37,729 nucleotides of DNA, from NCBI RefSeq assembly GCF_003334405.1, contig NZ_QOWM01000026.1; one strand, given 5' to 3'. The position numbers were made by a program, and so were the translations under genes. This stretch comes from Escherichia coli (GTDB lineage Bacteria > Pseudomonadota > Gammaproteobacteria > Enterobacterales > Enterobacteriaceae). This document shows, one piece after another, positions 26,508-34,631 of the stretch; position 1 is the first letter of the stretch; each line of letters starts with the position of its first letter. Under the pieces are notes generated by a model. It ran no database searches. It saw nothing but the letters and a program-made list of their open reading frames with translations, and was not told the DNA's origin.

Positions 26508-27896
26508 ATGGCACTGCAAAATGAGAAAAATAGTCGTTATCTTTTGCGCGACTGGAAACCAGAAAATCCGGCCTTCTGGGAAAATAAAGGAAAACATATT
26601 GCTCGAAGAAATCTCTGGATATCAGTCAGTTGTCTACTTCTTGCCTTCTGTGTCTGGATGCTATTTAGCGCAGTTACCGTTAATCTCAATAAAATCGGTT
26701 TTAATTTTACTACCGATCAACTCTTTTTATTAACCGCATTACCCTCCGTTTCTGGCGCATTATTGCGTGTTCCCTACTCCTTTATGGTGCCTATATTCGG
26801 TGGACGCCGATGGACGGTTTTTAGTACTGCAATCCTGATTATTCCTTGCGTCTGGCTCGGAATTGCCGTGCAAAATCCGAATACTCCTTTTGGGATATTT
26901 ATCGTTATCGCTTTGCTATGCGGTTTTGCAGGTGCAAACTTTGCTTCGAGCATGGGCAATATCAGTTTCTTCTTTCCAAAAGCCAAACAAGGGAGCGCTC
27001 TTGGGATTAATGGCGGATTAGGAAACTTAGGTGTAAGTGTAATGCAGCTGGTTGCACCGCTGGTCATTTTTGTACCTGTATTTGCCTTTCTCGGCGTCAA
27101 TGGCGTACCGCAGGCCGACGGTTCGGTGATGTCGCTGGCGAATGCCGCATGGATTTGGGTACCGCTACTGGCGATTGCCACGATCGCCGCATGGTCAGGG
27201 ATGAATGATATCGCCAGTTCACGCGCCTCAATTGCCGACCAGCTCCCTGTCTTACAACGCCTGCATCTCTGGCTGCTGAGCCTGCTTTACCTTGCCACCT
27301 TCGGTTCGTTTATCGGTTTTTCTGCGGGTTTTGCCATGCTGGCAAAAACCCAGTTCCCGGATGTGAATATTCTGCGCCTGGCGTTCTTTGGCCCATTTAT
27401 CGGTGCCATCGCGCGGTCGGTTGGTGGTGCTATTTCCGATAAGTTCGGCGGCGTGCGGGTGACGTTGATCAACTTTATTTTTATGGCGATTTTCAGTGCC
27501 CTGCTGTTCCTTACCTTACCGGGCACAGGCTCCGGTAATTTCATCGCCTTTTACGCCGTATTTATGGGGCTGTTTCTGACTGCGGGTCTGGGAAGTGGTT
27601 CTACTTTCCAGATGATCGCCGTCATCTTTCGCCAGATAACCATTTATCGGGTAAAGATGAAAGGCGGTAGTGATGAGCAAGCTCATAAAGAAGCCGTCAC
27701 CGAAACGGCGGCGGCTCTGGGCTTTATCTCAGCCATTGGCGCAGTGGGCGGCTTTTTTATTCCGCAGGCGTTTGGCATGTCGCTCAATATGACCGGCTCT
27801 CCGGTCGGCGCGATGAAAGTGTTTTTAATCTTCTACATCGTTTGTGTGCTGCTGACCTGGCTGGTTTATGGTCGGCGGAAGTTCAGCCAAAAATAA
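26508..27896 (+). CDS. narU: nitrate/nitrite transporter (MFS, NarK paralogue)
   Basis: ORF track 476 aa from 26466; I use ATG 26508 (MALQNEKNSRYLL..., 462 aa) with GAGG upstream. Confidence 0.92.
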   Translation: MALQNEKNSRYLLRDWKPENPAFWENKGKHIARRNLWISVSCLLLAFCVWMLFSAVTVNLNKIGFNFTTDQLFLLTALPSVSGALLRVPYSFMVPIFGGRRWTVFSTAILIIPCVWLGIAVQNPNTPFGIFIVIALLCGFAGANFASSMGNISFFFPKAKQGSALGINGGLGNLGVSVMQLVAPLVIFVPVFAFLGVNGVPQADGSVMSLANAAWIWVPLLAIATIAAWSGMNDIASSRASIADQLPVLQRLHLWLLSLLYLATFGSFIGFSAGFAMLAKTQFPDVNILRLAFFGPFIGAIARSVGGAISDKFGGVRVTLINFIFMAIFSALLFLTLPGTGSGNFIAFYAVFMGLFLTAGLGSGSTFQMIAVIFRQITIYRVKMKGGSDEQAHKEAVTETAAALGFISAIGAVGGFFIPQAFGMSLNMTGSPVGAMKVFLIFYIVCVLLTWLVYGRRKFSQK

Positions 27897-27977
27897 GAGA
27901 TCGATGCCTGATGTACAACCGTGTCGCATCCGACAAGGCATCAGATCCCAATTCATTCCTGGAGCAGGAGTCATGTC

Positions 27978-33259: not shown

Positions 33260-33954
33260 TGCAGATCCTCAAAGTGATCGGCCTGTTGATGGAGTATCCG
33301 GACGAGCTGTTGTGGGAATGCAAGGAGGACGCGCTGGCGTTGATCCGCCGCGACGCGCCGATGCTTACGGATTTCACCCACAACCTGCTTAACGCGCCGC
33401 TGCTGGATAAACAGGCCGAATGGTGCGAAGTGTTTGACCGCGGGCGCACCACGTCGCTGCTGCTGTTCGAACATGTTCATGCCGAGTCCCGCGATCGCGG
33501 CCAGGCAATGGTGGACCTGCTGGCGGAGTATGAAAAGGTCGGCCTGCAGCTGGATTGTCGGGAACTGCCCGATTATCTACCGCTGTATCTGGAGTATTTA
33601 AGCGTACTGCCTGACGATCAGGCGAAAGAAGGATTGCTCAATGTTGCGCCGATCCTCGCCCTGCTTGGCGGTCGCTTAAAACAACGCGAGGCACCGTGGT
33701 ACGCGTTGTTTGATGCTCTGCTGCAACTGGCGGGAAGCTCCCTTTCAAGTGACAGTGTCACAAAACAAGTAAACAGCGAAGAGCGCGATGACACCCGCCA
33801 GGCGCTTGATGCAGTGTGGGAAGAGGAACAGGTGAAGTTTATTGAAGATAACGCCACGGCGTGTGACAGCTCGCCGCTTAATCAATATCAGCGACGCTTT
33901 AGCCAGGATGTCGCGCCGCAATATGTCGACATCAGTGCGGGAGGTGGGAAATGA
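33259..33954 (+). CDS. narW: nitrate reductase Z assembly chaperone (delta)
   Basis: ORF track 231 aa; start overlaps narY stop (TAATG). Confidence 0.93.
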
Positions 33955-34631
33955 TTCAGTATCTGAACGTCTTTTTTTACGATATCTACCCGTACATTTG
34001 TGCGACGGTGTTTTTCCTCGGCAGCTGGCTGCGCTACGACTACGGGCAGTACACCTGGCGCGCCTCCTCAAGTCAAATGCTCGATAAACGCGGGATGGTG
34101 ATATGGTCGAATCTGTTCCATATCGGCATTTTGGGGATTTTCTTCGGGCACTTGTTCGGCATGTTAACGCCGCACTGGATGTACGCGTGGTTTTTGCCAG
34201 TGGCAGCGAAACAACTCATGGCGATGGTGCTCGGCGGTATTTGCGGTGTGTTGACGTTGATTGGCGGCGCAGGACTGCTGTGGCGCAGGCTGACAAATCA
34301 GCGCGTGCGTGCCACTTCCACTACGCCGGATATCATCATCATGAGCATTTTGCTGATCCAGTGTCTGTTGGGGCTAAGTACCATACCGTTTTCAGCACAG
34401 TATCCTGATGGTAGCGAAATGATGAAGCTGGTGGGTTGGGCGCAAAGCATTGTCACTTTCCGTGGTGGATCGTCAGAGATGCTCAACGGCGTAGCGTTCG
34501 TCTTCCGCCTGCATCTGGTGTTGGGAATGACCATCTTCCTGCTCTTCCCGTTCACCCGACTGGTGCATGTGTGGAGCGCGCCGTTTGAGTACTTTACTCG
34601 TCGATATCAAATTGTGCGTTCGCGGCGATAA
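33951..34631 (+). CDS. narV: nitrate reductase Z gamma subunit (cytochrome b)
   Basis: ORF track 226 aa; hydrophobic; start overlaps narW stop. Confidence 0.93.

Follow-up and report, generated by a model that had tools for sequence, protein, structure and literature searches.

The narU-narZYWV locus of Escherichia coli, a second nitrate reductase operon paralogous to narK-narGHJI

The narU-narZYWV genes of Escherichia coli have been known in sequence, and studied, since around 1990. Their E. coli counterpart, narK-narGHJI, has the same five-gene order, the same cofactor ligands and likewise overlapping genes. Its narK-narG gap spans 515 nt, houses the narS sRNA and carries the narG promoter controlled by Fnr, NarL and IHF, whereas the narU-narZ spacer is 81 nt. 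According to the literature, the narGHI enzyme (NRA) is induced by anaerobiosis and nitrate, and nitrate reductase Z (NRZ) by RpoS and growth phase. In Salmonella Typhimurium, narZYWV (the stiA locus) encodes an orthologous RpoS-dependent, starvation-induced second nitrate reductase, as described by Spector et al. (1999), cited in PMC7759655 and PMC11417348. Pseudomonas narK1K2GHJI, with a divergent narXL, shares the gene order, and in most of its loci the transporter-to-narG spacing of 57–70 nt is compact like that of narU-narZ. However, its transporter is only 55–59% identical and its alpha subunit about 70% identical, and narXL adjoins it, as in E. coli NRA.

Identity and proteins of the locus

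The window, the whole stretch of 37,729 nt that was analysed, contains the five ORFs of the operon, all on the plus strand, at 26466/26508..27896, 27921/27978..31718, 31715..33259, 33259..33954 and 33951..34631. Positions 26508–34631 are base-for-base identical to b1469–b1465 of E. coli K-12 MG1655 (0 differences), and the window shows zero differences from the MG1655 chromosome between 26046 and 37568. The differences outside the operon are a 178-bp REP-containing insertion at 18378–18555, the loss of 1 bp from yddK at 25447, and a small number of SNPs. Since five long ORFs have E = 0 matches to curated families, chance is no explanation. We put the probability at about 0.96 that 26508–34631 is E. 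coli narU-narZYWV, encoding NRZ and a dedicated nitrate/nitrite transporter; no feature of the sequence speaks against this. The earlier note had read the region as a second, paralogous operon of transporter plus alpha, beta, delta and gamma subunits, and this is borne out by the K-12 identity, the NCBIfam equivalogs and the two sister clades described below. Its remark that this is known biology also holds, the locus being that of K-12; the finding is correct, ordinary and already known. As a discovery it has little importance, as the locus is long characterised and the NarU structure solved. Antisense ORFs of 80–201 aa within the operon were also considered; they have no RefSeq annotation, and the six longest gave no NCBIfam match above noise.

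Curated NCBIfam cut-offs served as the criterion of family membership, and all five proteins passed them. The first gene, narU (26508–27896), encodes an MFS nitrate/nitrite transporter of 462 aa, matching NF011608 at 1019 bits (cut-off 836) and TIGR00886 at 341 bits (cut-off 312). The crystallised protein 4IU8/4IU9 aligns to it over the full length, and we take NarU to be this protein of known structure. Alignment with NarK showed that the substrate-binding arginines R87 and R303 are kept. The product of narZ (27978–31718) is the 1246-aa catalytic alpha subunit of nitrate reductase Z, with Mo-bisMGD and the FS0 [4Fe-4S] cluster. It matched TIGR01580, the narG equivalog, at 2330 bits (cut-off 1084) over residues 2–1234. 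A PDB search gave NarG (1Q16) as its nearest solved structure and found no solved structure of NarZYV. Residues H50, C54, C58, C93 and D223 are identical to those of NarG; in the NarGHI structure 1Q16 the H-x3-C-x3-C...C pattern holds the FS0 ligands and the Asp is the molybdenum ligand.

The beta (iron-sulfur) subunit of 514 aa is encoded by narY (31715–33259) and matched TIGR01660 at 981 bits (cut-off 524). All 15 of its 15 cluster cysteines align with NarH, as does W219; the four Cys groups correspond to three [4Fe-4S] clusters and one [3Fe-4S] cluster, in which the Trp replaces the missing Cys. The delta subunit from narW (33259–33954; 231 aa) is a NarJ-type assembly chaperone absent from the final enzyme, which matched NF011628 at 513 bits (cut-off 410) as well as TIGR00684; NarW has been termed the purported NarZYV chaperone (PMC4464133). 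Last, narV (33951–34631) encodes the gamma subunit of 226 aa, a di-haem b membrane anchor and quinol oxidase (TIGR00351, 427 bits, cut-off 106). Its haem-ligand histidines H57, H67, H188 and H206 correspond to H56, H66, H187 and H205 of NarI, while non-ligand histidines vary. In the gene order narZ-narY-narW-narV, the NarJ-type chaperone gene lies between those for beta and gamma. These sequence features place the predicted narZYWV product among the membrane-bound respiratory nitrate reductases (NarGHI type, DMSO-reductase family type II). For E. coli NRZ, activity as a quinol:nitrate oxidoreductase is known from the literature (Iobbi-Nivol et al., cited in PMC7759655).

By homology to the NarK and NarU structures, NarU would bring nitrate into the cytoplasm and carry nitrite out. 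By homology to NarGHI, NarV would oxidise quinol at the periplasmic face through its di-haem b, and electrons would pass through the four NarY iron-sulfur clusters and FS0 to the Mo-bisMGD of NarZ, where nitrate would be reduced to nitrite on the cytoplasmic side, giving a proton-motive redox loop as in NarGHI. NarW would act as an assembly chaperone, outside the final enzyme. NRZ can use any quinol source. As described in the literature, NRZ is expressed at a low level and induced through RpoS on starvation or in stationary phase, with no induction by anaerobiosis and nitrate, and so would supply nitrate-respiring capacity ahead of, or without, NRA induction. Both RpoS dependence and anaerobic repression of NRZ are summarised in PMC7759655 from the work of Chang (1999) and Spector (1999); the rpoS dependence of its transcription is also given, with the same citations, in PMC11417348. 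In this account the electron path and transport come from homology and RpoS control and co-transcription from the literature; gene identities, ligands, paralogy, selection, overlaps and synteny were computed.

Comparison with narK-narGHJI and origin of the operon

The alignment with narK-narGHJI that had been proposed as a check bore out the paralogy at 55–79% protein identity. NarU is 75.8% identical to NarK, NarZ 78.7% to NarG, NarY 79.1% to NarH, NarW 55.4% to NarJ and NarV 71.6% to NarI. Between the two operons dS was 1.2–2.9 and dN/dS about 0.06–0.13, which indicates an old duplicate under purifying selection. A megablast search matched the query in two places per genome, and this prompted a check for gene conversion. 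With dS above 1, identity of 87% in the best 150-nt window and no identical run longer than 29 nt, recent conversion between narZYWV and narGHJI was ruled out.

It might be supposed that the operon is a redundant copy drifting toward loss, given that NarZ is reported to have only a small share in nitrate reduction and in growth on nitrate under anaerobiosis (PMC7759655) and that some E. coli strains carry IS elements inside the region covered by our 9-kb query. However, the five ORFs are intact, dN/dS is low and every ligand is kept; most of the length of the query was found in 5390 of 5426 complete E. coli genomes, and the narUZYWV region occurs in many genera with a constant overlap architecture. 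Phenotypes in starvation, virulence and ciprofloxacin adaptation have also been described (PMC7759655, PMC11417348). Purifying selection and conservation thus effectively refute drift toward loss, to which we assign almost no probability.

In a scan covering about 100,000 species, of which the best 80 loci were used, NarZ-type and NarG-type sequences of the Enterobacteriaceae fell into two sister clades (bootstrap 100/100); where a species has two copies, each clade contains one of them. The NarZ of the window, identical to b1468, falls in the NarZ clade (bootstrap 100), and its locus has the NRZ-type context, with narU directly upstream, no narXL and a short spacer between transporter and alpha subunit. 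Among the loci of the scan, narXL adjoins every NarG-type locus and 0 NarZ-type loci. The overlap pattern also differs, being -4/-4/-1 in NarG-type and -4/-1/-4 in NarZ-type loci, and in enteric loci the spacer measures 37–168 nt in the NarZ type versus 329–516 nt between narK and narG. Salmonella was represented among the best 80 loci by the narK locus of S. enterica subsp. arizonae, and no narU locus of the genus was among them. The locus thus presents a textbook enzyme duplication in quantitative form: old, under purifying selection and with its own overlap pattern for each paralogue.

We favour the view that narU-narZYWV is an old duplicate of narK-narGHJI that arose within the lineage, and that would since have lost both its linkage to narXL and the long narG promoter region under Fnr and NarL control. 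Horizontal gain of the second operon from another lineage appears quite improbable. The operon does adjoin an AT-rich (33–39% GC), IS-prone stretch of decayed yddL/K/J, and narZYWV is without orthologues in Dickeya and Pectobacterium according to PMC3349551; yet its own GC content of 52–56% is in line with that of its surroundings. The NarZ and NarG clades are moreover closest to each other, with a gammaproteobacterial outgroup, mostly Pseudomonas, about 70% identical to both, and branching inside the NarZ clade roughly tracks genera. An early transfer between close enterobacterial relatives fits the present data as well as duplication does.

The Pseudomonas-like spacing led us to consider the NRZ locus as the ancestral copy, and this was dropped because the outgroup loci carry narXL, like NRA. 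From the sequence comparison, NRA appears to keep the ancestral narXL linkage and NRZ the ancestral compact spacing. With one ancestral trait in each paralogue, neither can be called the original on that ground.

Gene overlaps, transcription and the region upstream of narU

The genes narZ and narY overlap by 4 nt (ATGA, 31715–31718), narY and narW by 1 nt (TAATG, 33259), and narW and narV by 4 nt (ATGA, 33951–33954). The overlapping stop and start codons noted earlier at 31715, 33259 and 33951 are exact in their coordinates, and the 4/1/4-nt pattern is identical in 25 of 25 NarZ-type loci. A GGAGG Shine-Dalgarno sequence lies 6–9 nt ahead of all three internal starts. The overlaps suggest translational coupling of narY, narW and narV, each of which would be translated from a start that overlaps the preceding stop codon.

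Ahead of narZ, the 81-nt narU-narZ spacer (27897–27977) contains an AGGAG ribosome-binding site and a stable hairpin (-26.5 kcal/mol, z = -2.55). An intrinsic-terminator scan found no terminator-like site in this spacer. No counterpart of the narS sRNA was found downstream of narU, where the spacer is this short, and no Rfam family reached its gathering threshold in the nar region. The hairpin was also considered as a decayed REP element, but sensitive blastn found it once per genome (median 1 place); being single-copy, it is no dispersed REP. At the other end of the operon, the narV-yddE spacer (34632–34709) holds two hairpins with no T-run (-30.3 kcal/mol, z = -3.41). It has no canonical terminator; the nearest plus-strand site is at 34760, within yddE. 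These were simple sigma-70 promoter and intrinsic-terminator scans, whose site counts were at or below those in shuffled sequence.

The five genes most likely form one transcription unit whose promoter lies ahead of narU. Transcript levels of all five genes are increased by a point mutation upstream of narU (PMC11417348). A Crl-regulon table gives narU as its own transcription unit (PMC6469107), which weakens the reading of a single transcript. The same table gives no transcription factor for narU.

What is mildly new here is confined to two invariant motifs in the region upstream of narU. One is the conserved plus-strand palindrome GTTAC-ATTTA-GTAAC at 26325–26339. In an alignment of 13 species with a mean column identity of 52%, the core TTAC-N5-GTAAC shows conservation of at least 90%, and GTTAC-N5-GTAAC looks like a putative operator. 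It was compared with the E. coli operator consensuses for NarL (7-2-7), Fnr, ArcA, GntR, ModE, NsrR and TyrR, none of which appears to fit. The other is an invariant box, TTATCTATTCTT (26388–26399, plus strand), which includes TCTATTCTT at 26391–26399; columns T127–T142 of the alignment, which cover the box, are invariant across the 13 species. TCTATTCTT agrees at 8 of 9 positions with the sigma-S extended -10 consensus, TCTATACTT, which is suggestive of a candidate sigma-S-like -10 element of the narU promoter. The sigma-70 scan found no plus-strand promoter-like site upstream of narU or in either spacer. The published up-mutation (PMC11417348) corresponds to window position 26245, about 150 nt upstream of the -10-like box, and this distance counts against a firm placement of the promoter at the box.

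Tentatively, and with rather less than even confidence, we suggest that the two motifs, phylogenetic footprints preserved in at least 13 enterobacterial species, may correspond to the actual sigma-S promoter of narUZYWV and to a regulator's operator. In that case NRZ expression would answer to a specific signal, beyond being merely "constitutive/RpoS". The regulation of NRZ, so far poorly defined, has been linked to survival in starvation, to virulence and to early adaptation to ciprofloxacin, and the motifs give a specific point from which to approach it.

fdnGHI and the wider neighbourhood

The formate dehydrogenase N genes fdnGHI (18578–23168, minus strand, from the mapped MG1655 annotation) lie outside the operon and are divergent from narU. 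A SECIS_3 element was found within them at 22528–22586 (84 bits). The fdnG start codon, at 23168, is 3340 nt from the narU ATG, so the earlier note was right to place fdnGHI 3 kb away; calling it the physiological electron donor of NRZ was an overstatement, given the differing regulation described in the literature.

FdnG and FdnH (89–98% identity) lie divergently upstream of narU, with yddG between, in 16 of the 23 species with a full 10-kb flank, and none was found near narK-type loci. This synteny is real, and might be read as a dedicated, co-selected formate-to-nitrate module in which Fdh-N is the specific donor of NRZ. We consider such a module unlikely. The fdn and nar units diverge from each other across 3.3 kb, with AT-rich decayed genes as well as yddG between them, and in 7 of the 23 species fdnG is not within 10 kb. 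In the Fdh-N/NarGHI redox loop electrons are exchanged through the quinone pool, and with such exchange by both enzymes a dedicated pairing of Fdh-N and NRZ is unnecessary. A pairing of Fdh-O with NRZ was reportedly proposed by Abaibou et al. in 1995. Regulation also argues against the module: Fdh-N is induced by nitrate and anaerobiosis and partners NarGHI in the formate-nitrate chain, whereas constitutive Fdh-O is thought to serve during the transition to anaerobiosis (PMC7759655, PMC3349551, PMC3160892), and NarZ is repressed by anaerobiosis and minor in anaerobic nitrate respiration (PMC7759655, PMC3349551). These reviews back the expression patterns of Fdh-N and Fdh-O only, and no specific Fdh-O/NRZ pairing. 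The linkage to fdnGHI is kept in many genera without implying co-regulation.

The wider neighbourhood had been described as one of stress and stationary-phase genes. Of the genes named, gadC, dosCP, ddpXABCDF, osmC, bdm and sra are all within the window; gadB is not, except as an end fragment, since window position 1 corresponds to MG1655 1,570,746 and only the last 102 nt of the gene are included. A literature search found no single paper giving all these neighbours as RpoS-dependent. A stress or stationary-phase neighbourhood around the operon is plausible, and narU, narZ, narY and gadC have been reported to rise 13- to 62-fold in stationary phase (PMC4015609).

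Gene content of the narU-narZYWV locus

The stretch at 26508-34631 (+), which encodes nitrate reductase Z (NRZ) and the nitrate/nitrite transporter NarU, is filled by five same-strand open reading frames: narU (26508-27896), narZ (27978-31718), narY (31715-33259), narW (33259-33954) and narV (33951-34631). Mapping placed the window as the reverse complement of MG1655 at approximately 1,532.8-1,570.7 kb, with zero differences over 26046-37568, so the five genes are b1469-b1465, with every start and end just where the earlier note placed it. The longest reading frames would permit earlier starts at TTG 26466 (narU) and GTG 27921 (narZ); alignment of the NarZ and NarG N-termini (MSKLLDRFRYFK vs MSKFLDRFRYFK) and the RefSeq annotation support ATG as the start of both genes. 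Megablast matched the segment 26000-35000 in 5,420 of 5,426 complete E. coli genomes; in 5,390 the coverage reached at least 80%. Annotations of the matched stretch read narU, narZ, narH/narY, narW and narI/narV. Of 9,458 places matched across E. coli assemblies, 34 are on plasmid-labelled records, and IS903-family and IS3-family elements were seen inside this 9-kb region in strains SCU-118 and OY754443.

All five products exceeded curated NCBIfam cut-offs: NarU (NF011608, 1019 bits, cut-off 836), NarZ (TIGR01580, 2330 bits, cut-off 1084), NarY (TIGR01660, 981 bits, cut-off 524), NarW (NF011628, 513 bits, cut-off 410) and NarV (TIGR00351, 427 bits, cut-off 106). In a structure search the crystallized protein 4IU8/4IU9 matched NarU end to end; no NarZ structure was returned, the closest solved relative being NarG in 1Q16. 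The residues that serve as cofactor ligands or substrate contacts in the NarGHI and NarK/NarU structures were all conserved, namely H50, C54, C58, C93 and D223 in NarZ, 15/15 cluster cysteines plus the Trp of the [3Fe-4S] group in NarY, the four haem histidines in NarV, and R87 and R303 in NarU. On the opposite strand the operon contains thirteen reading frames of 80-201 aa; RefSeq annotates none of them, and no above-noise family match was obtained for the six longest. Rfam gave no match within the nar region at gathering thresholds.

The overlapping stops and starts reported in the earlier note at 31715, 33259 and 33951 were all present. At 31715-31718, ATGA contains both the stop of narZ and the start of narY; narY and narW share a single A at 33259, narW and narV share ATGA at 33951-33954, and GGAGG precedes each of the three internal starts. 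In loci recovered from other species, this -4/-1/-4 pattern was common to 25 of 25 complete NarZ-type operons, whereas NarG-type operons had -4/-4/-1 in 12 of 17 cases and otherwise -4/-4/+2; the overlaps are therefore conserved, with one fixed pattern per paralogue. Such an arrangement suggests that narZ, narY, narW and narV may be translationally coupled.

An old duplicate of narK-narGHJI

The locus had been described as a second, paralogous nitrate reductase system, and protein alignment with MG1655 bears this out: NarU as well as NarZ, NarY, NarW and NarV share 75.8, 78.7, 79.1, 55.4 and 71.6% identity with NarK, NarG, NarH, NarJ and NarI of nitrate reductase A (NRA), respectively. Synonymous sites of the paralogues have diverged to saturation or close to it (dS 1.25-2.9), with dN/dS of approximately 0.06-0.13, and the narU-narZYWV duplicate is old and evolves under purifying selection. 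There was no sign of recent gene conversion in 150-nt windows (best at most 87% identity) or in identical runs (longest 29 nt).

A NarU scan over ~100,000 species' genomes gave three groups among the best 80 loci listed. In narU-type loci (Escherichia, Citrobacter, Enterobacter, Kluyvera, Lelliottia, Klebsiella, Pluralibacter, Atlantibacter, Pseudocitrobacter and Tenebrionibacter) NarU identity was 79-96% and a NarZ-type alpha subunit always came next; the listed narK-type loci had narXL divergently upstream in every case; and the listed outgroup loci, mostly Pseudomonas, were 55-59% identical. One hit, L004 (JAEWSH010000114.1), is a 4.7-kb contig in a "Bacillota bacterium" metagenome-assembled genome; its NarU shows 100% identity to the E. 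coli protein, and the contig is most likely E. coli contamination of the bin. Three Atlantibacter/Buttiauxella narK loci (L030, L034, L039) carry 3.5-4.1 kb inserted between narK and narG.

In a neighbor-joining tree built from 61 alpha subunits, with 100 bootstrap replicates, NarZ and NarG formed sister clades with the outgroup outside, and two-copy species had one alpha subunit in each. Support reached 100/100 for the core of the NarZ clade, for the NarG clade and for the split from the outgroup, and 97/100 when Pantoea sp. 1.19 is counted in the NarZ clade. The same conclusion has been reached for NarW, which evolved paralogously from proteobacterial NarJ and is reported to be apparently specific to Gammaproteobacteria, always within a narZYV operon (PMC4464133). 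The feature itself is already known; only the upstream motif pair described below and this quantitative account of the duplication are new, and only mildly so.

Spacers and the region upstream of narU

The 81-nt narU-narZ spacer (27897-27977) has a hairpin fold (-26.5 kcal/mol, z = -2.55), and a terminator scan found no terminator-like site in it. Transporter-alpha spacers measured 37-168 nt in enteric NarZ-type loci and 329-516 nt between narK and narG. In Pseudomonas the spacing is compact as well (mostly 57-70 nt), and in this outgroup narXL adjoins narK, as at the NRA locus; the ancestral narXL linkage has thus stayed with NRA and the ancestral compact spacing with NRZ. In E. coli the spacer is single-copy but polymorphic, being at least 80% covered in 3551 of 5402 matching genomes, so that about one third of strains have an indel or a divergent spacer. 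In Enterobacter asburiae (L024) narU seemingly overlaps narZ by 4 nt.

Alignment of the 250 nt before narU from 13 enterobacterial species (mean column identity 52%) contained two near-invariant islands, the palindrome GTTAC-N5-GTAAC at 26325-26339 and the box TTATCTATTCTT at 26388-26399. Within the box, TCTATTCTT agrees at 8/9 positions with the sigma-S extended -10 consensus; the palindrome fitted none of the operator consensus sequences compared with it (NarL 7-2-7, Fnr, ArcA, GntR, ModE, NsrR, TyrR). The two are candidate promoter and operator elements. Stationary-phase induction has been reported for narU (62-fold), narY (19-fold) and narZ (13-fold) (PMC4015609), and RpoS dependence of NRZ is credited to Chang 1999 and Spector 1999 (cited in PMC7759655, PMC11417348). 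Genomic SELEX has given a binding peak (intensity 4.9) for a minor-sigma RNA polymerase holoenzyme in the narU-yddJ spacer (~26185-26507), the sigma factor apparently being RpoE (PMC5493296).

A single ciprofloxacin-adaptive mutation upstream of narU, T1538580C in BW25113, raises all five narUZYWV transcripts, and the same study treats the five genes as one operon (PMC11417348). The mutation maps to A26245, at which a hairpin with a 7-bp stem (26245-26273) begins just past the yddJ remnant; the -10-like box lies ~150 nt further downstream, and the distance from the mutation to the narU ATG is 263 nt.

The formate dehydrogenase neighbor and the rest of the window

The fdnGHI genes (18578-23168, -), which encode formate dehydrogenase N (Fdh-N), lie divergent from narU, with 3,340 nt between the fdnG start (23168) and the narU ATG, in agreement with the 3 kb noted earlier. 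The sole Rfam match in the window, SECIS_3 (22528-22586, -; 84 bits), is inside fdnG and starts at the in-frame Sec196 TGA. The interval holds yddG and the yddL/K/J stretch (24541-26184), which consists throughout of AT-rich gene remnants (33-39% GC). Among the narU-type loci, 23 had the whole 10 kb of upstream flank; FdnG/FdnH (89-98% identity), divergent and with yddG between, were found at 16 of these and at none of the narK-type loci listed, so the synteny is real and spans several genera without being universal. That Fdh-N is "the" donor of NRZ, as the earlier note had it, does not follow from this. Reported regulation and the quinone pool make the claim over-specific: anaerobiosis together with nitrate induces fdnG, and Fdh-N acts in the formate-nitrate chain (PMC7759655, PMC3349551, PMC3160892), while the share of NarZ in anaerobic nitrate respiration is described as small and its expression as repressed by anaerobiosis (PMC7759655). 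Both enzymes use the quinone pool, so NRZ can be fed by any dehydrogenase that produces quinol. Apart from this claim and the listing of gadB as a neighborhood gene, the earlier interpretation was right in substance. Only the last 102 nt of gadB (1-102) are present, because the window begins inside it (MG1655 1,570,746); gadC is complete.

Within yddL/K/J, a 1-bp deletion relative to MG1655 at 25447 splits yddK into reading frames 24855-25451 and 25430-25810, and strain W5-6 has an IS1 in this stretch. What lies between yddG and narU in other genera differs in length, with a range of 1.6-4.4 kb. Between yddM and fdnI there is a 178-bp insertion relative to MG1655 (18378-18555), flanked by a 34-nt imperfect direct repeat and holding a REP-type palindrome (GCCGGATAAGGCGT / ACGCCGCATCCGGC). 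Parts of the insertion matched a median of 30 places in each genome, and a 221-nt query over it was present in full in 3040 of 5426 E. coli genomes.
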